Below, piece by piece: positions 2,097-57,992 of a stretch of DNA of 57,992 bases. Source of the stretch: a virus; IMG/VR virus record IMGVR_UViG_3300033141_003442, one strand, 5' to 3'. The notes beneath the pieces are model-generated. The model ran no database searches. It saw nothing but the letters and a program-made list of their open reading frames with translations, and had not been told where the DNA came from. Position 1 is the first letter of the stretch, and every line of letters starts with the position of its first letter. The position numbers were made by a program, and so were the translations under genes.

Positions 2097-5000
2097 ATGC
2101 CATTAACCCCAGTTGACTATGACCCTTTTAAAGAAGAAAAACAATCTTCAAAAAAATTAACAAAAAAACAAAAAGCAAAATTAGTTCCCGTTGATTATGA
2201 CCCTTTTGCTTCTGAAAAAAAGCAACCAGAAATCAGTGCTGAAAAAGGTATCCCACAATACCTCATCCCTTTTAGTAAATACCTAGGTATAGAACCAACT
2301 TATGTAAAACCAGGCTCATTTCTTGGTAATTTATTGGCTGTGCCTCATGCCTTTTTTGAAGCTGGAACGACTGCATTTGAAAGCCCTTATTATATTTTAA
2401 AAGGGCTAGGGAAAATATTACGATTACCTTCTTTAGAAAAAGCTGGCGAATGGGGGATTAAAGGACTTGAACCTACAAGAAGACATCATGAATTAATGCG
2501 TAAACAATTATATGTGCCACCTACTTCACCAACAGCACGATTAGCCCATTCCATTAGTAAAAAAGTAGCAGAAGCAATAGGAAGTTTTGCCCGTCCTGAT
2601 TTGCCTGTTTTAGTAGCTAGTCCTACAGCTTATGGTTTTCTTAGTGGATTAGAAACATTAGGAGCAGGAGCTCCACCTACACAAGCTTTAACAGCAGGCA
2701 TACATGGAATGATAGCAGGTAAAACTTTTGAAGCTGTTAGAGGATTAAGTCCTATGCAGGCACTTACTAGAGCCGGGGCTGTTGGAGCTACACCTGAAGT
2801 TGCAAGAGGTCTTATTACTGGTAAACCAGAGCAAATTGGTAAAGGAATAGAGGAAGGACTAAGCCTTGGTATATTTTCTGCATTGGCTACAATAAAAACT
2901 CCCTTAGCAAGAGAAATATATAGAAATAAAGTAAAAGCAGGCGTTCCAAGAGAAAAAGCATTACAAACAGCCTCTTTAGTAGAAGAAACAATTAAATCCT
3001 TAGATATTGATAAAGCTAAAAGTCTACCTCTTAAAGAAAAAGAAATACAAAAAGTAGAGAAAATCATTAGGGAGATAAGTAAACAAATAGAAGATTTACC
3101 AGAAGTTATAAAAGGTAAACGGGGATATAAGACAGAGAAAGGAGCTAAAATAGGGTTAAGATTGTTTGCTAAAGAAAATAAATTACCAAAAGATATGGAT
3201 TTAACCCAACATTACAATTTAGAGAAGGACGAAGCAGGTAATTTTGTTTGGAGAAAGATAACTGAAAAGCCAACGGAAATTAAACCTGCAATTAAACCTA
3301 AAGAAGAAGTAAAGCCTCCAGAGGTAGAAATTCCTAAAGAAGAAAAACCTCCAGCAAAAGAAATCAAAGAAAAGGTTGAAGAAAAGCCTAAGAAAGCCAA
3401 ACCTTATGAAAGCGTTGAACCTGGCAGTGCAGAATGGATGAAAATCTGGAAAGAGCATCCAGAGCTACAAAAGGAGATGGCTGAGATACGCCAGAAACAA
3501 ATAGTTGAGGAAGGTAAGAAAGAAGAAGCTTTACCAGAGGCTAAACCTGAAAAAGAACCTCCCAAAGAAAAACCTCCAGTAGTGCCTTTAACTAAGACAC
3601 TTTATGAAAATTCCTATCCCATTGAATTAAGTAAGGCCAGTGAGGTGTTTCCTAAACATAGACTTGGCGTTGATTATGTAGTTAAGCTGGTGGATAAAAA
3701 TACAGGTAAGGTTACTTGGGCTAGTTTAAGTGAGAAAAGGGCAAGAGAGTTATTTCCACGGTCTTTTGAAGAAAAGGCTAAGGAAGTTCCTAAAGCAGAA
3801 GCTGAATGGCAACCTGTAAAGGATTACAGCAAAGAAATAACTGAAGGAACTCATGTCAAATGGAAATATAAAGGCAAAGAGGGTGAAGGAATAGCCACAG
3901 GCAAGACAGGAAGGCGTAAGACAGGATTTGTTTATCATAAAGTTAAAACTCCAGAAGGCAAAACAAAATATATGCCTTGGACACCTAAAGCAGAATATTG
4001 GATTAAGGCAGAGAAAAAAGTTAAACCTGTTAAAGAAACAAAGGCAGAGGTTAAAGAAAAAGAACCTATAATAGCTATTTCTAAACGTGAACCTAATTTA
4101 CAATTTGAAATTGACCGTATAGAAGGAAATAAATTTATTGTAAAACGTCCTGTTATTATAAGCACATTGAAAGGAGAAGAAGGGAAAATAGTAGAAACAC
4201 CTGATAAATATTTAATAGGGCGAGAATATCCCGTTGAGAATTTTAGATTTGTAACACCCAAAGAATATGTAGCAGAAGTAAAAACAAAAGAAGCAAAAAT
4301 AAAAGCAGAAAGAGAAGCACAAAGGGAAACAGAACGAAAAAAACAGGAAGAAATTAAACAAGCACTTAAAGCCAAGCCAGTTACAGATAAGTATTATATT
4401 TATTTAAAGGACAAAGGTTTTGAGGAAGTTGAGAAAGCCTATCCTGTTAAAATCTCAGGGTTTGAAAAGTATGATTTATTTGCCCATAAGGTAGGTAAAA
4501 AATGGAAAGTTTCTGAAAGTAAAACTGGTGTTGCTATAACAAAAGCCCTTCCAACCCGTAAAGAAGCAATAAAACAAGCTACTGAAATTTTAAATAGGCA
4601 TAAAGAAAAATCTGATGAAATGATAGAAGATGCTATAGCCTATGCGTTATCTCAGACAGGAATTTCTCCACGATATAAGCCTATTTCTAAAGAACCTACA
4701 ATAACTCAACCCAAAGAAAATTTATATGAAGTGCGTCATCCAGAGAAAAAGACATGGTATCAAATCAAAGAAGACCCAGAAACAGAGCAATGGAGAGTTA
4801 TAAAGTTTGAGCCTTATGAAACTATACATGAAGGACAAAAAGTAACTGTTAATAAAGCTACTGAAACAAAGTTTTTTAAAACTTTAGAAGAAGCAAAAGA
4901 TTTTGCTCAAAAAGGAATTATAGGCAAGCCAGTAGAAGTAAAAATAAGTTCTTTTGTAAAAGATGCTTATCTGGAAGAATATGGCAAAGAAAAAGGCACA

Positions 5001-8000
5001 CAAGAATTATCAAATTTAAAAAATAAAGTTCAAAAAGCATGGGATATTTTAAAAAAGAAATATCCTCAATATGCTAATAAAATTACTTCAATTACTATTC
5101 ATAGAATGTCCCCAGAAGATATAGCATTAGGTGGTGTTTCTTCTATTGGTAAGAAAGGAGATGTTATTGTTGACCCAACTCATGCTAAAACAGAGCCTAT
5201 GGAAACGCTTGCTCATGAAATGTTACATGCAACAGGAGCTACTGAAAAAGAAGCTCGTGCTTTTGAAAAAACTATATCTAAAGAAACTAAATTTTATTCT
5301 GGTATCCCTATTGATGAAATAGTTAAAACAGTCAATGAAACAACTAAGAAGGTTGTTGATTATATTAAACAAAAAAAGATTGAAAAAGTTGATAAAGCAG
5401 AAATAGAACATACAGATAGATTTCTTTCTTTTTATGCTAAACAAATACCTAAAGTATTAACTAGACTATATGAAAAAGAACACCTCAAAACAGCTCATCC
5501 AGAAACTGTTTATAGAGAGGCTTTAGGTGAATTACCTACTACTATGCCTGAAAAAGTTAAAAAGCCAATAGTTAATGCTTTGGATGCTTCAAGAGAACAC
5601 GATTATAAGCTTAGTGGTTATGAAATAAAAGTTAAAGAAAAATTATTAGGTAGTTACAATGCTATTTATAAAATATATGGCAAAAAAGGAATAAAAAGAT
5701 TTTTTGATTTACTTTCTGCTGAAGCACATAAACGCCATGCAATTAGTGAAAAACAGTTAAAAGAATTACCACCTGAGTTTCAATTAGCTTATAAAAGAAC
5801 AAAAGAATATTTATTAAACCCATTAAAAGAATATATGAAGTTTTTAGAAGAAAAATATCCTGAAGGATATAAAACAGAAGAAATGGCTAAAAAAGCATTA
5901 GCTGAAGTTGCAGAAAAGAAACAAATAGAAAATATAGAAAGCTTATATACTTTAAAACAAAATAAAGCCAACCTATTTTATTGGGAGAAAAACCCTAATG
6001 CTGAAAAAATAGCTAAAAAGAAATTACCTCAAATTATTACAAAATGGAATAAAGAATATCAAAAAGTAAAAGAGTTATTAAAACAGGCAGAAAAAGATTA
6101 TTTTTATCAACCTACTGTTAGAACTCATGAAGATATTATCCTTGTTCTTAAAAAACCTAAAAAAGAAGGTGCTAAATCTACCGTTGTAGGAGCTTTTGAA
6201 TTCCCTAATGAAAGGAAAGCTAAACAACAATACAATAGAATGCTTAAAGGTGATTATACAGCTATTCTTAATTGGTTTAGACGGGTAGGAGATTTAGAAG
6301 CTGGAAGAGATTTTGTAAATAACATTAAAAAGGGTGATTATACATTAAAGCTTATCAAATTTAAAACAGAGCCTACTTATACTCCTGAAGATATACCTCT
6401 ACAAAGTGTAATGGGCATTTTATCTAAATACAAAGGGAAACAAATCAAAGCTAAAAATCTTCAGGCTAAAGCTATTGCTGAAGATATACAGCGGTTTATT
6501 GAGAAGTTTGTTAATCCTATTAGTGTTAAAAGTTTTCATTTAGAAAAGAAGAATATCCCTGGATGGAGCTTAGACCCTCTTGATAGAAATGATATTTTAC
6601 TTAGAAGGGTGCTTTCTGAAAAATCTCTTATTGAGAAATTAAAACTTTCTGATGTTATAACTAATTCTTTTGCTCAAATAGACCCAGAACAACATCCACA
6701 ATATTATAAATGGCTTTCTGATTTTAATAAATATATGATGACGCCTAGAGAACCTGAAACTACTCGCCGTATTCTTTCTGCTTGGAGTATGTGGGGCAAT
6801 GCAATGTCTGTTATAGCTAATGCTACTCAGTCTTATATTTTAGGCCCCGCTGTAATAATAGAAAATAAATTAAATCCTGCTAAGTTTTTAAAATATGAAA
6901 CTGAGTATTTAAGAAAGTATATTGAAAGTGATTACGATAGTAAAGACTTAGCTTATCTTGAATGGGGAAAGAAAAACGGTGTATTTGCTCCTACAGCATG
7001 GAAAGAAGCTATGCTTGGTTTAACGGGAGAGAGAGGAGGAGTAATACCCAAGATAGAAGATATAGGTTATGCGGGATTTACTTTTGTTGAGTCTGTTAAA
7101 AACAGAATGAATACTTTTCTCTCTGTAGCTAAAATGCTTGAAGAAAAAGGAATGCCTTTTGAAGAAGCTATGAAAAAAGCTCGTGATATTACTTTTGATA
7201 TTCATTTTGATATGAATAAATGGAATACGTTGATTAGAAAGAAATATCCTAGATTATTTCAAACCTTAATGAGTTTTACATTTCATTCCTTTAAAACATT
7301 AAGAAGACTTATTTTTAAATCTTTTCCTTCTGCTAGAGAAAGAAAATATGCTATAGGTGCATTAGCTACTTTTTATTTAACTCATTTTTTAGTTGGCGGA
7401 ATGGCAGCTACTCCAGGCGGAGAACTTTTCTGGCAGATGGTTGATATTCCCTTTAAAAAAGTTTTTAGGCAATCTATAAAGACTTATTTAATGAATGAAT
7501 TTTCTGATAAAGAACGCAAAAAATTACGTTTGTTCATACAATATGGATTGTTGGGATTGGCAGGATTACCAAGTGTAGCAGATAGAATTGGATTTGGTTA
7601 TAGAGAAGTAAGTAAACTTAATAATTTTATAGCAGATGCAATGGCTCATTTAGCTCCTATTCCAGTAATGGTTGCTAATCAAGCTGTTAAAGCTATTAGA
7701 ATGACGCAAAAGGGATATTCTTGGCCGACTGCTATTTCTCAACAATTCTCTCCTACCGTTGTAAGGAATATTTCTAGAACGCTGTATGCAATTAAAAAAG
7801 GTTATTTGCCAACATCCTATGGTAAACCTCTGCAAGATATATATGGTAATAACTTTGTGCCTACTGGATTAGAAGAAATTGCTATGTCTTTTATTGGTGC
7901 AATTCCACCTGAACAACAAGAGATTTATGAAATTAAAGAAGCTCAAAGAAAAAAAGAAGATATAAGATTGGCTCACTTACACGATATTACTAATGATATA

Positions 8001-8324
8001 GTATTAGGATACCTTGATAAAGATTATGCACGAATAGGAAGAGGGTTTGCAAAATGGACAAAATATAATAAAGAAATAATTAAAAAGATAATTAAGGCAA
8101 AAAAAGAGAAAAGAAATGATTTAGCTCGCTTCTGGTCAACTCAGTTAATAGAGCAAAAAGCAGTTGAAACATCTATTAGAAATAGATTAGGAAGACATGA
8201 AAGTGCACCAAATTTGTTAATGATGAGCTGGTGGAAAAAAGGACAAAAAGGTTATGAAGAAGCTGTTAAAGTTATTCTCTTAAGGGAATATTTACGCAGG
8301 CTTAAACAAAGGTTAAGGAGGTAA
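2097..8324 (+). CDS. Giant protein (2075 aa): candidate tape-measure or ejected polyvalent virion protein with HExxH zincin-like motif
   Basis: Uninterrupted 6.2-kb ORF with SD; duplicated N-terminal motif PVDYDPF x2; K/E/P-rich low-complexity stretch; HEMLH motif (LAHEMLHATG); hydrophobic C-terminal segments. Confidence 0.6.
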   Translation: MPLTPVDYDPFKEEKQSSKKLTKKQKAKLVPVDYDPFASEKKQPEISAEKGIPQYLIPFSKYLGIEPTYVKPGSFLGNLLAVPHAFFEAGTTAFESPYYILKGLGKILRLPSLEKAGEWGIKGLEPTRRHHELMRKQLYVPPTSPTARLAHSISKKVAEAIGSFARPDLPVLVASPTAYGFLSGLETLGAGAPPTQALTAGIHGMIAGKTFEAVRGLSPMQALTRAGAVGATPEVARGLITGKPEQIGKGIEEGLSLGIFSALATIKTPLAREIYRNKVKAGVPREKALQTASLVEETIKSLDIDKAKSLPLKEKEIQKVEKIIREISKQIEDLPEVIKGKRGYKTEKGAKIGLRLFAKENKLPKDMDLTQHYNLEKDEAGNFVWRKITEKPTEIKPAIKPKEEVKPPEVEIPKEEKPPAKEIKEKVEEKPKKAKPYESVEPGSAEWMKIWKEHPELQKEMAEIRQKQIVEEGKKEEALPEAKPEKEPPKEKPPVVPLTKTLYENSYPIELSKASEVFPKHRLGVDYVVKLVDKNTGKVTWASLSEKRARELFPRSFEEKAKEVPKAEAEWQPVKDYSKEITEGTHVKWKYKGKEGEGIATGKTGRRKTGFVYHKVKTPEGKTKYMPWTPKAEYWIKAEKKVKPVKETKAEVKEKEPIIAISKREPNLQFEIDRIEGNKFIVKRPVIISTLKGEEGKIVETPDKYLIGREYPVENFRFVTPKEYVAEVKTKEAKIKAEREAQRETERKKQEEIKQALKAKPVTDKYYIYLKDKGFEEVEKAYPVKISGFEKYDLFAHKVGKKWKVSESKTGVAITKALPTRKEAIKQATEILNRHKEKSDEMIEDAIAYALSQTGISPRYKPISKEPTITQPKENLYEVRHPEKKTWYQIKEDPETEQWRVIKFEPYETIHEGQKVTVNKATETKFFKTLEEAKDFAQKGIIGKPVEVKISSFVKDAYLEEYGKEKGTQELSNLKNKVQKAWDILKKKYPQYANKITSITIHRMSPEDIALGGVSSIGKKGDVIVDPTHAKTEPMETLAHEMLHATGATEKEARAFEKTISKETKFYSGIPIDEIVKTVNETTKKVVDYIKQKKIEKVDKAEIEHTDRFLSFYAKQIPKVLTRLYEKEHLKTAHPETVYREALGELPTTMPEKVKKPIVNALDASREHDYKLSGYEIKVKEKLLGSYNAIYKIYGKKGIKRFFDLLSAEAHKRHAISEKQLKELPPEFQLAYKRTKEYLLNPLKEYMKFLEEKYPEGYKTEEMAKKALAEVAEKKQIENIESLYTLKQNKANLFYWEKNPNAEKIAKKKLPQIITKWNKEYQKVKELLKQAEKDYFYQPTVRTHEDIILVLKKPKKEGAKSTVVGAFEFPNERKAKQQYNRMLKGDYTAILNWFRRVGDLEAGRDFVNNIKKGDYTLKLIKFKTEPTYTPEDIPLQSVMGILSKYKGKQIKAKNLQAKAIAEDIQRFIEKFVNPISVKSFHLEKKNIPGWSLDPLDRNDILLRRVLSEKSLIEKLKLSDVITNSFAQIDPEQHPQYYKWLSDFNKYMMTPREPETTRRILSAWSMWGNAMSVIANATQSYILGPAVIIENKLNPAKFLKYETEYLRKYIESDYDSKDLAYLEWGKKNGVFAPTAWKEAMLGLTGERGGVIPKIEDIGYAGFTFVESVKNRMNTFLSVAKMLEEKGMPFEEAMKKARDITFDIHFDMNKWNTLIRKKYPRLFQTLMSFTFHSFKTLRRLIFKSFPSARERKYAIGALATFYLTHFLVGGMAATPGGELFWQMVDIPFKKVFRQSIKTYLMNEFSDKERKKLRLFIQYGLLGLAGLPSVADRIGFGYREVSKLNNFIADAMAHLAPIPVMVANQAVKAIRMTQKGYSWPTAISQQFSPTVVRNISRTLYAIKKGYLPTSYGKPLQDIYGNNFVPTGLEEIAMSFIGAIPPEQQEIYEIKEAQRKKEDIRLAHLHDITNDIVLGYLDKDYARIGRGFAKWTKYNKEIIKKIIKAKKEKRNDLARFWSTQLIEQKAVETSIRNRLGRHESAPNLLMMSWWKKGQKGYEEAVKVILLREYLRRLKQRLRR

Positions 8325-8884: not shown

Positions 8885-9541
8885 ATGATGGAAAATAAAA
8901 AGATAATTTGTATCAGCGACCTTCACATTCCTTATACTAGCCGATATTTTATTCCTTTTGCTGGTTATGCTTGTAAAGCGGATAAGGTAATTTTTAATGG
9001 AGATATTCTGGATTTAGTGAGATGCAATACAAACGAAATTAAAAATAGCTATATTGGACAAAAGTTGATTAGTGCATTGAAAAAGATTGTAAAATCAACC
9101 CAAACAATGTTCATTGAGGGTAATCATGACCCAGAATTAGAAAAAAGTCTAACTGAATTATTAGGAATGGAAATTGCTACATTCCCTTTTTATCGTATAG
9201 GCAGGATAGGATTTGTGCATGGACATCAATTTGACCCCTTCTGCAAACATTGGAATTGGCAATTACTATCAAAGTTTGGGCCTTGGTTTTTTAATCCACC
9301 TTCTAGATGGAAACAGAAAGATAGAGAAAAATGGAAAGAGAAAATAGGAAAAATATATACAGAAGCATTTTCTTTCTTAGAAAAAGCTAGTTGGTGTAGA
9401 ATATTAGTTATTGGACATACTCATTATCCTTCTGTCCATAAATTGGAAACAGGACAAAAGCTAGCTGATTGTGGAGATTGGATAGATAGTAAGAGTTGGG
9501 TGGAAATTGAAAGAGGTAAAGTGGAAATTAAAACATTGTAA
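8885..9541 (+). CDS. Calcineurin-like metallophosphoesterase
   Basis: Motifs in order: ISDLH, GDILD, GNHD, GHQFD, GHTHYP. Confidence 0.75.
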   Translation: MMENKKIICISDLHIPYTSRYFIPFAGYACKADKVIFNGDILDLVRCNTNEIKNSYIGQKLISALKKIVKSTQTMFIEGNHDPELEKSLTELLGMEIATFPFYRIGRIGFVHGHQFDPFCKHWNWQLLSKFGPWFFNPPSRWKQKDREKWKEKIGKIYTEAFSFLEKASWCRILVIGHTHYPSVHKLETGQKLADCGDWIDSKSWVEIERGKVEIKTL

Positions 9542-9544
9542 GCT

Positions 9545-10815
9545 ACCCCTTTTTTACGGAAGGGGCTTTATCAGTGAGGAATAATCCTCCTGATTTAGGG
9601 CAGGCTTACAAACTGCCCAGCCCAAGAAGGAACTTTTGCCTTCAAGGGCAAAGATAGCAAGATTTTTGGAGGCATTGTAATCAGCATGGACTTGATAGCC
9701 ACAAGCCTTACAACAAAAAACAGAACCATTACGATTAGAAGATTGAATATGGCCACACTTACTACATCTTTGAGAACTGTATTTAGGGTCAACAAACCAA
9801 ACATCAATACCCTCTTCAAGTGCTTTGTATTGAATATAATTTGGGAGTTTAGAAAATGCCCAGAGAGAAACTTTATGTTTTTCAGCTTTTCTCCATTTTT
9901 TTACACTTCCTCTAATACTATTAAGATTTTCCATAGCAATTACTTGAGCACCAATCCTTTTTGCCTTCTCAACAATTTGCCGAGAAATATTATGCAAAAC
10001 CCAGTTAACAAAGCGGTTTTCTCGCCCACTCATTCTCTTAAGCAAGAGATGGGCAGAGCGAGTGCCTTTCTTTTGGATTTTGCTTCTCCGTTCGGCAAAC
10101 TGTCTTCTTTTATCATTAAGCATTCCTGCTTTAAAAAATTTGCCTATAGAGGTTACAGCAATATTCTTAACTCCCAAATCAACTCCCATAACAGTTTCAG
10201 GTTTTCTAACAAGAGCGGGTTTAATTATTGTAATATTAAGAAAGAAATCTTTGCCATTATAAGAAAGTGTAGCAGTCCTAAATTCATAATTTGTATTATC
10301 AAGTATTTTCTTTTGATAATCTCCAAGAAGATATTTGGCTTTTACTCTACCATTTACAGTAGAAAAAGTGCATTCTCTATTTTTAATAGTTACAGTTCTT
10401 TTATCAAGTTGAATTGCAGAAAAAGGCCTGAAGGTTGGTTTAGTTGCTTTTCTCTTTTTACTCCAATTGATAACACAAAGTTTAACCGCATCACAAGCTT
10501 TATTCCGAGCAGAACATATCAAATTAGCTTGAAGATTGGTTTGCTTTTTAAGTGGATAGTAAACAAGTTTATGGAGTTTAGATTTATTGATTATCTTCTT
10601 TTCAGGCTTCCATGCTTCATTTATGCAAAAATTAAGAGCAAAATTATATTGTCTAAAAGTTTCAAGAACATCTTGCTTTCTTTCTTGTGGAATATCCAGT
10701 TTTACTTTACAAGTCTTGATTATTTTTCTCATCGTGGTAAAATTATATCATGTTTATCTGAAATGTCAAGAAAGGAGTAAAAAGGCAATTCCTCCCCACC
10801 CTTACGGATGGGGTC
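9545..10815. mobile_element. Putative IS200/IS605-family (IS1341-like, tnpB-only) insertion bounded by similar subterminal hairpins
   Basis: Hairpin CCCCTTTTTTACGGAAGGGG at 9546-9565 and CCCCACCCTTACGGATGGGG at 10794-10813, same orientation, flanking tnpB; no tnpA present. Confidence 0.45.
9554..10732 (-). CDS. tnpB: TnpB-like RNA-guided endonuclease (IS200/IS605 OrfB family)
   Basis: 392 aa; RuvC-I (GVDLGVKNIAV), RuvC-II (IAMENLNS), zinc finger CSKCGH...CCKACG, RuvC-III (HADYNASKNLA). Confidence 0.85.
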   Translation of the reverse strand: MRKIIKTCKVKLDIPQERKQDVLETFRQYNFALNFCINEAWKPEKKIINKSKLHKLVYYPLKKQTNLQANLICSARNKACDAVKLCVINWSKKRKATKPTFRPFSAIQLDKRTVTIKNRECTFSTVNGRVKAKYLLGDYQKKILDNTNYEFRTATLSYNGKDFFLNITIIKPALVRKPETVMGVDLGVKNIAVTSIGKFFKAGMLNDKRRQFAERRSKIQKKGTRSAHLLLKRMSGRENRFVNWVLHNISRQIVEKAKRIGAQVIAMENLNSIRGSVKKWRKAEKHKVSLWAFSKLPNYIQYKALEEGIDVWFVDPKYSSQRCSKCGHIQSSNRNGSVFCCKACGYQVHADYNASKNLAIFALEGKSSFLGWAVCKPALNQEDYSSLIKPLP

Positions 10816-10832: not shown

Positions 10833-11018
10833 ATGAACCAGCAAGAGATAGAAGCAAGAAGACTTACTACTTTAATCAAGCAGTGGGCAATAGAAATTAG
10901 GACTAGATGTTCTGAAACAGAAGACCCAGAAGAGTGCAAAAGACTTATAGAACAATTACTTAAAGCATGTGAAAAGTTTGAACGGTTGATAAATTTAATT
11001 GGATATTTTAAAAATTAA
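10833..11018 (+). CDS. Hypothetical protein (61 aa)
   Basis: ORF immediately after the putative IS left end; no clear SD. Confidence 0.3.
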   Translation: MNQQEIEARRLTTLIKQWAIEIRTRCSETEDPEECKRLIEQLLKACEKFERLINLIGYFKN

Positions 11019-11031
11019 GCAGGAGGCAAAA

Positions 11032-11406
11032 ATGAAGAAATTACCTATTATTTTTCTCTGCTTTATATTTTTGGGTTGTGCTGGGCATACAGGTAAGCTT
11101 GTCAAGAATTATGATGATTTTATGAAACAGGCTAATGAGTTGGCCATTGTTCTTTGCACACATAGTGAATTCTCCACTTGTTATTGGCAGGCTGCACTAG
11201 GAGATGATATAAACAAACTGCCTGCTGAAGCTTTAAACATTCTGGATGAGATTGAACAAACAGTTAAAGGTAAAACGGTAGATGAACTAACGGAATGTGA
11301 AAAAGGGAAGTTATTAGGTTTATGGCAGAGATTTACTTATCTTGTAGGCAAGGATATAATAGAGAAGGTCGTGCCTTATATGATTAAGTTTGTAGGGGCT
11401 TTGTAA
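11032..11406 (+). CDS. Putative lipoprotein (signal peptide plus Cys)
   Basis: In-frame ATG at 11032 preceded by AGGAGG; N-terminus MKKLPIIFLCFIFLGCAG has a lipobox-like FLGC. Confidence 0.5.
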   Translation: MKKLPIIFLCFIFLGCAGHTGKLVKNYDDFMKQANELAIVLCTHSEFSTCYWQAALGDDINKLPAEALNILDEIEQTVKGKTVDELTECEKGKLLGLWQRFTYLVGKDIIEKVVPYMIKFVGAL

Positions 11407-15212: not shown

Positions 15213-15704
15213 ATGATTAAATTTCTTGCATACAAAGGCACTGATTGGCTGGCTAAAGTAATTAAGTGGGAAACTCAGTCAGATTATTCCCACATAGCAT
15301 ATCTTTATGATGACAACCATATAATAGAATGTTGGCCTGAGCATTGGTATCAATTGTTGAATGTAAGGTGGAATATCAGGCCAATGTTTAAAGGATACAA
15401 AAAGGGTGATGAATACGAGATATGGGGCTTAGAGGTTTCGGACGGACAAGCTTGTGTTATTCATAATTTCTTTCTAGGGCTTGTAGAGAAGAAAGCCAAA
15501 TTTGATTATGTAGCTGGATTTGGATTATTTACAAAATGGAAGAAAGAAAAAATAGGACAATATTTTTGCAGTGAAGGATGTATTACTCCACTTGTAAGAA
15601 TATTTGATTGGACACATATTAAGCCTTGGAAAGTAACGCCTGAAAATTTCATACAAATTATTCAGGCTTGTGGTGGGAAGTTAATAGAAAAAGGTAAAGT
15701 TTAA
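15213..15704 (+). CDS. Putative permuted papain-fold hydrolase (YiiX/YaeF-like); assignment tentative
   Basis: His-containing motif (SHIAYLYDD) precedes a Cys motif (QYFCSEGC), consistent with permuted NlpC/P60-like enzymes. Confidence 0.35.
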   Translation: MIKFLAYKGTDWLAKVIKWETQSDYSHIAYLYDDNHIIECWPEHWYQLLNVRWNIRPMFKGYKKGDEYEIWGLEVSDGQACVIHNFFLGLVEKKAKFDYVAGFGLFTKWKKEKIGQYFCSEGCITPLVRIFDWTHIKPWKVTPENFIQIIQACGGKLIEKGKV

Positions 15705-16405
15705 TGTCAAATTCTAACAAGCCATATAGAGTTGTCTATTTTTCTGGTGGTAAAGATAGCACTGCCATGTTAATAGTGTTATTGGAAAACCAAATACCTT
15801 TTGATGAAATAATTTTTAATGATACTGAGGTAGAATTTCCAGAAATATACACACATATAAATTTAGTTCAAAAGAAGCTTGAGGTTAAAATAACATATTT
15901 AAAACCTAAGAAACATTTTGAATACTGGATGTGTGAACACAGAACTAGAAAAGGGAATATTGGTTATGGATGGCCTCGGATAAAATTGCGATGGTGCACT
16001 AAACTTTTTAAGCAACGAGCAGAAAGTTCATACTTTAAGAAAAAACAATTAAAAAATATCCGTAAACTAATAGGAATAAGTACAAGTGAAATAAATAGAA
16101 TGAAAAAATATTATAAGCAAGAAATTTATCCTCTTGTAAAATTTGGAATTGACAGCCAAGAAGCGTTAAAAATATGTTATCGTTATGGTTTTGATTGGAA
16201 TGGATTATATGAGAAATTAAGCCATACAGGCTGTTTTTGGTGTCCATTTCGGAGACTGAGAGAATTAGAAAATATTTATCGTTTTTATCCTCATTTATGG
16301 GTAAAAATGATGGAACTAGATGGTAAGTGTTGGAATAAATTTAGAGAAAATTGGACTTTGAAAGAATTAGAAAAACGATTTAAAAACACAGTTTATCTTT
16401 TTTAA
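15704..16405 (+). CDS. PP-loop ATP-pyrophosphatase family protein (PAPS reductase-like)
   Basis: N-terminal PP-loop SGGKDS (VVYFSGGKDSTAM); C-terminal Cys cluster; about 230 aa. Confidence 0.6.
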   Translation: MSNSNKPYRVVYFSGGKDSTAMLIVLLENQIPFDEIIFNDTEVEFPEIYTHINLVQKKLEVKITYLKPKKHFEYWMCEHRTRKGNIGYGWPRIKLRWCTKLFKQRAESSYFKKKQLKNIRKLIGISTSEINRMKKYYKQEIYPLVKFGIDSQEALKICYRYGFDWNGLYEKLSHTGCFWCPFRRLRELENIYRFYPHLWVKMMELDGKCWNKFRENWTLKELEKRFKNTVYLF

Positions 16406-16505
16406 GGCAATAAACTGCCACATATTTAGCCTCTGAGGCAGGTTTGAATTGAAACAGGATGTTTGATATGGGTAAGGCCGAGAAAATGCAATACGGGGCA
16501 ATCTC

Positions 16506-22337: not shown

Positions 22338-22565
22338 TTAATATTCTACTTCTTCTTTTTCCATCCAAATTCTAAATTTCCAACCACATTCGCTACAATT
22401 GAAGTTAATTGCATTGTCAGAAATATTTTTTTTATTTGGGCAAGAAAATATTATTTTAAGTTCTTCTCCTTCTGGCCAATGCCCAAATGTATATATTTTA
22501 CCACAATTTGGACACTGCCAAATAAGTTTACAAAGTTTTTCTTTCATTTTTTTCTCCTTATTCAA
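22338..22565 (-). CDS. Small Zn-ribbon protein
   Basis: CxxC pairs (CPNCGK, CSECG). Confidence 0.5.
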   Translation of the reverse strand: MNKEKKMKEKLCKLIWQCPNCGKIYTFGHWPEGEELKIIFSCPNKKNISDNAINFNCSECGWKFRIWMEKEEVEY

Positions 22566-23094
22566 TATTTAACAAATATCTTTTAATCCCATTATTAATT
22601 AAAAATGCTGCTTTTATTTGGGCATCGGAAGAATGTAATGGGAGAAGGGGATTATCTATAAAACCTACTTCAATTAAAACAGCAGGCATTTTGGTTTTCC
22701 TTAATACATAAAAATTTCCTTCTTTAATTCCTCTGAACTTGCCTGGGACAATCTCATCAATAAATGTAGCAATATTATCTGCTAGTTTAGCACTTTTAAT
22801 TGAACCAGGATAAATCCAGATTTCCTCTCCCTTAGCATTATGTTTAGGAGAAGCATTAACATGAATACTAACAAAGGCATCTGCTTTTACACTATTTGCA
22901 ATAAAAACCCTATCTCGCAATGGCACATATATATCAGCCGTTCTGGTATAAATACAGTTTACCATATTGGATAAAAAACCACCCAAATATAATGCAATAG
23001 GCAAAACTATATCTTTTTCTTTGTATCCTGCATAAACAGCCCCTGGGTCTTTACCTCCATGCCCTGGGTCAATTACTATGGTGTATTTTTTCAT
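22558..23094 (-). CDS. N-acetylmuramoyl-L-alanine amidase (Amidase_3-type endolysin)
   Basis: N-terminal IVIDPGHGGKDPGA and downstream Zn-ligand pattern typical of Amidase_3 / CwlV-like enzymes. Confidence 0.8.
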   Translation of the reverse strand: MKKYTIVIDPGHGGKDPGAVYAGYKEKDIVLPIALYLGGFLSNMVNCIYTRTADIYVPLRDRVFIANSVKADAFVSIHVNASPKHNAKGEEIWIYPGSIKSAKLADNIATFIDEIVPGKFRGIKEGNFYVLRKTKMPAVLIEVGFIDNPLLPLHSSDAQIKAAFLINNGIKRYLLNIE

Positions 23095-57572: not shown

Positions 57573-57992
57573 ATGCCAGCACCAGTAGCTGCAGCAGGAA
57601 TAATTGGAGCGAGCACTTTAGGTGCAGCAGCTTTGAGTAAAGGAGGCCAAAAAGCAGGTAAAGTTCCTAGACCTTCAGCAGAAGAAAGGTCACTTCAAAA
57701 AGCTTTATTACCTTTATTATTATCTTCTTTATATGAAAAACCTGAAGATGCTTTACGTGCTCCTAAAAGTTGGACACAAGAAGAATGGGAAGCTTATTTA
57801 AGGGAAACAGGTATCCCTGTTGATTTAGTTAAATCAGGTATTTTAAGTAAGTATAAAAAAACAATTGATGAGATTGAGAAAATGATTGCTGGTATGTCAG
57901 AAAGAGAAAAAGAAGAGCTTGCACCAATTATTGAAGATTATGAAAGATATAAAAAATCTTTAGAACCAGGGTTAAAATCAGTTCCATTATCG
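57573..57992 (+). CDS. N-terminal portion of the junction-spanning ORF (continues at window position 115-480)
   Basis: ATG 57573 with SD AGGGGGTGA; open to the window end, in frame with ORF 4..480 through the duplicated 114 bp. Confidence 0.6.
   Translation, partial: MPAPVAAAGIIGASTLGAAALSKGGQKAGKVPRPSAEERSLQKALLPLLLSSLYEKPEDALRAPKSWTQEEWEAYLRETGIPVDLVKSGILSKYKKTIDEIEKMIAGMSEREKEELAPIIEDYERYKKSLEPGLKSVPLS

Follow-up and report, generated by a model that had tools for sequence, protein, structure and literature searches.

Do two adjacent genes at positions 15213-16405 of the virus catalogued as IMG/VR record IMGVR_UViG_3300033141_003442 act together as a single modification system, or do they merely lie side by side? 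The stretch of DNA analysed, hereafter the window, is 57,992 nucleotides in length. A sequence-only reading of it had described the first gene as encoding a permuted papain-like hydrolase and the second as encoding a PP-loop protein resembling PAPS reductases, and had proposed that the pair forms a cassette for modification or anti-defence. The interval holds exactly two co-oriented open reading frames (ORFs); both have homologues, and both are real genes. Comparison with related viruses reveals that ORF1 and ORF2 are independent accessory genes, which are adjacent only in a few close relatives. We consider it reasonably probable, taking the evidence as a whole, that these two genes evolve independently, with ORF1 serving as an envelope-directed accessory to lysis or adsorption and ORF2 functioning in nucleic acid modification or in interference with host defence.

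15213..15704, plus strand: ORF1, 163 amino acids, a circularly permuted NlpC/P60 cysteine hydrolase of the YiiX/YycO type (Peptidase_C92-like)
15704..16405, plus strand: ORF2, 233 amino acids, a stand-alone PP-loop protein of the ATP-pyrophosphatase type, PAPS-reductase/DndC/SspD superfamily

The two genes share the same orientation, and the ORF1 stop codon overlaps the ORF2 start codon by one base (TAATG). Both belong to the 3′-terminal part of the tail-fibre/late operon, with flanking genes for tail, terminase and portal proteins, and ORF2 adjoins TerL and a gene for a putative small terminase. A scan for promoters and terminators around both genes produced no signal above that of shuffled sequences, and 0 terminators.

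Distribution of ORF1 and ORF2 among related viruses

Contigs carrying relatives of each gene were compared, comprising 23 IMG/VR loci for ORF1 and the 80 best loci for ORF2, with a 6-kb neighbourhood considered throughout. An adjacent ORF2 is present at 4 of the 23 ORF1 loci, which are the window's own sequence (L009), L011 and L012 (each with 90% ORF1 identity), and L014 (87%), and all of these belong to the closest clade. The gene is absent from the neighbourhood of ORF1 in L010, L013, L015, L016, L017 and L022, in which ORF1 is 86-93% identical and the surrounding sequence is otherwise syntenic, and it is likewise absent from all of the more distant ORF1 loci. The opposite arrangement is represented by L006, which encodes an ORF2 with 81% identity and lacks ORF1. 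An ORF1-family gene accompanies just one of the 80 ORF2-family loci, and this locus is the window's own sequence.

Alignment of the DNA shows that, among genomes that are nearly identical, ORF2 behaves as a clean presence/absence unit of ~700 bp, bounded on one side by the stop codon of ORF1 and on the other by a conserved intergenic element:

16406..16505, no strand assigned: conserved ~100-nt intergenic element, right boundary of the ORF2 indel

In the same alignment, L013 lacks ORF2 entirely, and L015 and L017 carry a different insert of ~230 bp at this position. The element itself is nearly identical in five genomes, with or without ORF2 and regardless of the gene that follows. It contains short inverted repeats (CTGCC...GGCAG and GCCTC-T-GAGGC), matches no Rfam family, and has unremarkable folding z-scores of -0.7 and -1.8; it might serve in packaging, in termination or in regulation. 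The proposal that the pair constitutes one cassette thus finds no support in these comparisons, given the low frequency of adjacency on either side, an indel that is confined to ORF2, and the existence of relatives that carry each gene without the other.

ORF1, a permuted cysteine hydrolase, and the genes around it

Close homologues of ORF1 reach E 1e-103. At E<=1e-3 a profile of its homologues recovers 321 representative proteins, with lengths of 150-210 amino acids in nearly all cases. As a single sequence, ORF1 has no match in Pfam (E<=1), NCBIfam, PADLOC or the PDB, and it matches only the phage family phrog_1128 (9e-11), the name of which is dubious. Searches of the PDB with phmmer using ORF1 or ORF2 alone likewise returned nothing meaningful. 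A narrower ORF1 profile was uninformative against the PDB, and a wider family profile of 72 sequences was needed, which matches YiiX of E. coli (2if6) at 3e-7 and BcPPNE of B. cereus (3kw0) at 1.6e-5. Pfam family PF05708 (Peptidase_C92) is matched by 10 of these 72 family members (best 5.7e-6), with ORF1 itself falling below the gathering threshold. ORF1 is only ~16% identical to YiiX and BcPPNE, which are YaeF/YiiX-like permuted NlpC/P60 enzymes (COG 'YycO'), and the assignment of homology is based on the profile-to-PDB match (E 3e-7) and on the three-dimensional fold that ORF1 shares with YiiX and BcPPNE. Four positions align with functional residues of YiiX:

15291..15293, plus strand: codon of His27, catalytic histidine in an S-H-I-A motif; invariant (72/72) and aligned with the SH of YiiX 'SDYSHTGML'
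15327..15329, plus strand: codon of Glu39; Glu in 71/72 and aligned with the Glu of YiiX 'VFEA'
15501..15503, plus strand: codon of Phe97, which replaces the signature Tyr of NlpC/P60 enzymes (Tyr115 of YiiX), by alignment to YiiX 'YDF'
15567..15569, plus strand: codon of Cys119, catalytic nucleophile in an F-C-S-E motif; invariant (72/72) and aligned with YiiX 'YCSE'

A Cys/His/Glu triad has been described for YiiX and BcPPNE (PMC3142127). In ORF1 the catalytic histidine and the polar residue precede the catalytic cysteine, which is the order that marks a circular permutation, and thus the His-then-Cys hydrolase of the NlpC/P60 type perceived in the sequence-only reading is borne out by the conservation of these residues and their alignment with YiiX. 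Some differences from the solved relatives are evident. The histidine and glutamate are separated by 12 residues in ORF1, whereas the spacing is 15 in YiiX and BcPPNE (His49/Glu64 numbering; PMC3142127). The NlpC/P60 signature tyrosine, which is retained in 61 of the 72 family members, is replaced by phenylalanine in a subclade made up of the window sequence and the 9 relatives closest to it. Tyr99 and Tyr62, which are specific to this subclade, might compensate for the substitution. ORF1 also differs from YiiX and BcPPNE in being encoded by a phage, in a tail and lysis context.

The substrates of YiiX and BcPPNE have themselves been inferred. Structural work found that their hydrophobic S1 pocket holds a fatty acid and proposed activity as a lipid-amide amidase, and the pocket of YiiX-type enzymes is narrow and was judged unsuitable for peptides (PMC3142127). 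Other permuted NlpC/P60 enzymes target lipoproteins, phospholipids or peptidoglycan. The structural similarity of ORF1 to TseH (6v98), an effector of the V. cholerae type VI secretion system, and to LRAT/PLAAT, LnsA and the lipid-targeting toxins of Salmonella is much weaker. These proteins bear other accessory elements and are secreted or membrane-associated, whereas ORF1 carries no export signal.

Cultured phages also encode members of the ORF1 family, phrog_1128, and these have been annotated as 'permuted papain-like amidase' genes in Alteromonas phage vB_AmeM_PT11-V22 (ORF28) and Alishewanella phages Slicko01 and Slickus01. A tblastn search with ORF1 against cultured phages gave no match; the amidases are too divergent for direct detection in this way and were reached only via an intermediate family member, P0284, at ~30% identity. 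We found no experimental characterisation of these cultured-phage proteins. In PT11-V22 the order of genes is tail fibre, chaperone and then the amidase, and thus this gene and ORF1 occupy the same place, directly after tail-fibre/chaperone genes.

A comparable setting recurs in other members of the family. The ORF1-family gene ends the tail module in L041 and L001, with the portal gene following; it lies after a GDSL lipase gene in L040, and in L029 a tail-fibre gene and one for an Rz-like lipoprotein precede it. In the marine phage L039 (a TARA phage) the order is holin, Phage_lysozyme and then the C92 gene, which occupies the usual place of spanins. The tail-fibre genes beside ORF1 vary and ORF1 is conserved, and its company consists of tail-fibre, lysis and envelope genes rather than genes for DNA metabolism. 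Several further genes of the window bear on this association:

8885..9541, plus strand: LpxH-like calcineurin-like metallophosphoesterase, 218 amino acids; candidate partner that co-occurs with ORF1
10833-11018, plus strand: 61-amino-acid protein between the phosphoesterase and lipoprotein genes
10999..11406, plus strand: predicted lipoprotein, 135 amino acids, MKKLPIIFLCFIFLGC lipobox, with Cys27 at 11077-11079; candidate partner of ORF1
9554-10732, minus strand: TnpB/IS605-OrfB-like transposase-family gene, 392 amino acids (phrog_506, 9e-45), inside the late operon
22558-23094, minus strand: full-length Amidase_3 endolysin, an N-acetylmuramoyl-L-alanine amidase (PF01520, 3.5e-47; phrog_435, 4e-43)

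The 135-amino-acid lipoprotein matches no family. Its gene usually lies directly upstream of ORF1 (L001-3, L008, L011/12, L014, L016, L017, L019/20, L025) and its FLGC lipobox, which the L021 and L023 homologues also possess, is kept as LGC or LSC in homologues. The phosphoesterase matches PF00149 (2.3e-7) and the LpxH model NF003743 (7.4e-11, far under the cutoff of that model), and its PDB matches, weak at a best value of 5e-4, are all to LpxH, the UDP-2,3-diacylglucosamine diphosphatase. The block formed by the phosphoesterase, the 61-amino-acid protein and the lipoprotein travels with ORF1 in most relatives, with an order that is sometimes altered (L021, L023), and in several of them it adjoins a convergent Amidase_3 endolysin gene. 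In the window the block is split by tail-fibre genes and the TnpB-like insertion. TnpB-like ORFs distantly related to that of the window are located at other junctions of the block in L010, L015 and L016, and the region can be regarded as an insertion hotspot because these ORFs sit at the same junctions. Some relatives also carry a gene for a radical-SAM protein (PF04055/Fer4_12) after the metallophosphoesterase (L006, 3884-5238; L008, 4405-5055), which is absent from the window and represents a further variable accessory gene of the same region.

Because ORF1 adjoins tail-fibre or lysis genes, a lipoprotein gene and an LpxH-like phosphoesterase gene, its product is probably directed at the cell envelope. 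It is more speculative, and we regard it as unlikely, that ORF1, as an acyl-amidase or acyltransferase of the YiiX type, forms a phage module with the LpxH-like pyrophosphatase and the small lipoprotein, all three of which recur together where tail and lysis genes meet, and that this module attacks or remodels the outer envelope enzymatically. A function for ORF1 as the main endolysin was rejected in view of the full-length Amidase_3 enzyme encoded elsewhere in the window.

ORF2, a stand-alone PP-loop protein

Every one of the 103 homologues of ORF2 matches PF01507 (PAPS_reduct), as does ORF2 itself, which scores 43.6 bits where the cutoff is 22.5 (E 4.3e-11; residues 10-108). Its best match overall is to the phage family phrog_424 (1.4e-39). 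Among the PADLOC models, SspD matches ORF2 over nearly its full length (2.6e-24; positions 3-210 of 277), and BrxP (4e-11) and DndC (6e-9) are also detected; every NCBIfam equivalog model falls well short of its cutoff, the one for DndC yielding 26.9 bits, compared with a cutoff of 290. Three conserved features were defined from 46 homologues:

15743..15760, plus strand: SGGKDS PP-loop, residues 14-19, the ATP alpha-beta pyrophosphatase signature; S14 and S19 invariant, G15, G16, K17 and D18 each at least 90% conserved
15995..15997, plus strand: codon of Cys98 in an R-W-C-T motif; at least 90% conserved and aligned with a Cys of PptA
16232..16243, plus strand: C177-x-x-C180 motif; C177 invariant, C180 at least 90% conserved, with a CxxC also in PptA

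Cys98, C177 and C180 together represent a candidate iron-sulfur (Fe-S), zinc or persulfide site. The PP-loop protein of the sequence-only reading is therefore confirmed by the PF01507 match and by the conservation of its loop, and profile searches uphold the identities given there for both proteins, leading from the ORF1 family to 2if6 and 3kw0 and from ORF2 to PF01507 and SspD.

A protein of this description could be taken for a genuine CysH-type PAPS reductase, which would make ORF2 an auxiliary metabolic gene that boosts sulfate assimilation by the host. We consider this scarcely credible. The C-terminal ECGLH catalytic motif of CysH is absent from the 233-residue translation, and the CysH models score far beneath their cutoffs (TIGR02057, 13.3 of 254 bits; TIGR00434, 13.2 of 165; NF002537, 17.4 of 154). 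At the sequence level, PAPS reductases in the PDB align with the N-terminal ~65 residues of ORF2 only, and the canonical SGGKDS loop points to ATP pyrophosphatase chemistry. The auxiliary metabolic reading was rejected on the missing motifs and the model scores, and judged by its sequence, ORF2 is a PP-loop enzyme and not a CysH.

ORF2 has in common with SspD, DndC and BrxP the SGGKDS loop and conserved cysteines. It is, however, much shorter than DndC or BrxP and stands alone, none of the partners of those systems having been found in the genome. By sequence, its nearest relative of solved structure is PptA of Vibrio phage vB_VhaP_VH-5 (PDB 21fy chain C; E 1.5e-9), the match to which covers residues 5-214 of ORF2 and includes the R-W-C-T-like cysteine and the CxxC, such that all three cysteines are held in common. 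The PP-loop of PptA is a degenerate SCGAPS, whereas that of ORF2 is canonical. Like ORF2, PptA is a small stand-alone phage protein whose gene is located just before the portal gene. By tblastn it corresponds to a hypothetical protein of a T7-like phage (MN497414.1, 18758-19510; L122), encoded between the RNA polymerase and portal genes, and no paper on its function was found in the searchable literature.

The genes that most often neighbour ORF2 relatives at the 80 viral loci are those for an SNF2 helicase (25), a C5 DNA methylase/TerL cluster (19), portal (12), integrase (9), S-adenosylmethionine (SAM) synthetase (7) and a primase-like DUF5906 protein (7). At one locus the interval between TerS and TerL is occupied by a ParB-N6/N4 methyltransferase (MTase), a PAPS-like gene, a SAM synthetase and a ParB-MTase, and at another the ORF2-family gene is situated within the replication module. 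Since relatives of ORF2 adjoin SNF2 helicases, DNA methyltransferases, SAM synthetase and terminase, a role in nucleic acid modification or counter-defence is plausible for ORF2 alone, as judged from these neighbours and from published precedents. This part of the earlier proposal is retained, whereas its extension to ORF1 and ORF2 as a joint cassette is not.

The precedents come from phosphorothioate (PT) systems and from phage counter-defence. For PT synthesis, a PAPS domain is reported to be needed together with an NTPase (PMC12914056). Phages have been found to evade Dnd with the help of a PAPS domain that is fused to Dam (bioRxiv 10.1101/2021.05.05.442762); this protein, p0018 of Vibrio crassostreae podoviruses, lies in a variable anti-defence region and provides experimental evidence that gaining such a domain assists evasion of Dnd restriction. 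It differs from ORF2 in being a 479-amino-acid methyltransferase fusion that was transferred with a second gene, whereas ORF2 is a stand-alone protein of 233 amino acids in a genome with no recognisable methyltransferase. PAPS reductases are also found in Aca-regulated putative anti-defence operons, and published work (bioRxiv 10.1101/2021.05.05.442762; PMC13551039) thus supports a link between ORF2 and modification or anti-defence.

Genome, host and proposed activities

An exact direct overlap of 114 bp between its ends (positions 1-114 = 57879-57992) shows that the window assembles as a circle and represents the complete genome, ~57.9 kb in length, of a tailed bacteriophage. It encodes TerL, portal and major head proteins, RecT-like and exonuclease recombination proteins and a replication initiator, and contains no tRNA genes. 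A blastn search with the 6-kb region against cultured phages gave no match. Elsewhere in the genome, a 2075-amino-acid protein (2097-8324, plus strand) includes a long Lys/Glu-rich region and an HExxH zinc-protease-like motif (LAHEMLHATG). It is probably a tape-measure protein or an internal component of the virion in which a peptidase is embedded.

Proteins identical to ORF1 and ORF2 are on record (MHA1396113.1 and MHA1396114.1) from a metagenome-assembled genome labelled Candidatus Heimdallarchaeaceae, and relatives occur in bins assigned to Atribacteria, 'uncultured archaeon' and Victivallales. The presence of a peptidoglycan amidase and a lipoprotein signal indicates that the host is bacterial and probably diderm. 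An origin from an archaeal (Asgard) virus is unlikely given the Amidase_3 endolysin, and because a peptidoglycan-degrading endolysin implies a bacterial host, the Heimdallarchaeaceae label is doubtful and probably a binning artefact.

The analysis shows directly the folds and motifs, the homology, the statistics of synteny and the form of the indel, whereas the substrates, the envelope as target and the anti-defence role set out below are inferred. ORF1 would be made in the cytoplasm. His27 would activate Cys119, with Glu39 serving to orient it. Cys119 would then attack the carbonyl of an amide or ester to form an acyl-thioester, and the acyl-enzyme would be hydrolysed or its acyl group transferred to an acceptor. 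Because of the fatty acid in the pocket of its relatives, its placement among tail-fibre and lysis genes, and its lipoprotein and LpxH-like neighbours, the substrate is most likely to be some part of the host envelope, for example an acylated lipid or lipoprotein, or a peptide bond of the cell wall. ORF1 would thus be an accessory to lysis or adsorption, and not a DNA enzyme. ORF2, a protein of the DndC/SspD/BrxP kind, would bind ATP at the SGGKDS loop and adenylate its substrate with release of pyrophosphate, and its three conserved cysteines would serve sulfur or metal chemistry. It is a mobile accessory gene, or 'moron', that has been gained or lost as a unit, and its product, alone or with host factors, most likely acts on nucleic acid or interferes with modification-dependent, PT-based defence. 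In keeping with a separate history, the G+C content of ORF2 is 28.9%, compared with 33% for the genome.

Several observations weigh against this reading of two separate accessory genes with these functions. In the window the two genes almost certainly share a transcript and their translation may be coupled, and L011, L012 and L014 preserve the same tight junction between them. The Phe97 substitution in ORF1 may mean that its chemistry differs or is weakened. ORF1 has neither a signal peptide nor a tail-attachment domain, which leaves its route to the envelope unexplained, and the genome already has a canonical endolysin. ORF1 is found together with the lipoprotein and LpxH-like genes mostly within a single clade of related viruses, and common descent may account for this. 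In the case of ORF2, a genome-wide PHROG scan revealed no desulfurase, no NTPase of the DndD/SspC/BrxC type and no DndE/SspB, and no experiment on this subfamily was found in the searchable literature.

Other explanations must be weighed against these points. If the pair were a cassette acting on DNA or a nucleotide pool, the PP-loop enzyme might, for example, adenylate a substrate while the Cys-His-Glu amidase provided ammonia or removed or transferred an acyl group, in the manner of the glutamine amidotransferase and ATP-pyrophosphatase domains of GMP synthase. We judge this highly improbable, since adjacency is restricted to the closest clade and is absent even from some near relatives, ORF2 is found without ORF1 and is deleted by itself, and the solved relatives of ORF1 bind lipid rather than nucleotides (PMC3142127). 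A somewhat less remote proposal is that ORF1 acts in the cytoplasm as a peptidase for processing or maturation of tail fibres, or as a chaperone-associated protease, with no action on the envelope. Its position directly after tail-fibre/chaperone genes in the window, L041, L001 and PT11-V22 would suit such a role, as would the lack of a signal peptide. The copy in L039, however, belongs to a holin-lysozyme cassette far from any tail fibre, the adjoining fibre genes vary while ORF1 is conserved, and the S1 pocket of YiiX-type enzymes appears ill-suited to peptides, so we consider this function of ORF1 unlikely.

More weight, although still that of a minority view, attaches to the idea that the substrate of ORF2 is RNA or a small molecule, as in tRNA thiolation of the TtuA/NcsA kind or in adenylation of a cofactor, or that ORF2 is associated with packaging, rather than with DNA modification or anti-defence. 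The fold of ORF2 is equally close to those of TtuA, NcsA, LarE, FAD synthase and CysD, and its three conserved cysteines recall the Fe-S sites of tRNA thiolases. A packaging role would accord with the terminase genes beside ORF2 and with the many loci in which relatives lie next to TerL or portal. The strongest profile matches, however, are to the DNA phosphorothioation proteins SspD, BrxP and DndC, relatives recur beside DNA methyltransferases and SAM synthetase, and the anti-Dnd activity of a phage PAPS domain provides an experimental precedent. The assignment of ORF2 to nucleic acid modification or defence interference, and of ORF1 to the envelope, is thus the interpretation that we prefer.

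Both proteins belong to known kinds, and the locus does not represent a new modification cassette. Permuted papain-like amidases recur at the boundary between tail-fibre and lysis genes in phages, where they have no known role. If the envelope module outlined above were real, precursors of lipid A or lipoproteins could be deacylated or cleaved by it, leading to disruption of the outer membrane at lysis or to alteration of receptors for superinfection exclusion. For ORF2 the label 'PAPS reductase' misleads, since virome studies often take it to mark a gene of sulfur metabolism. Small stand-alone PP-loop proteins resembling SspD and DndC are widespread, mobile phage accessory genes that occur without their usual partners, and sibling genomes that differ only by ORF2 would offer an ideal test of whether such proteins modify DNA or defeat phosphorothioate-based defence.

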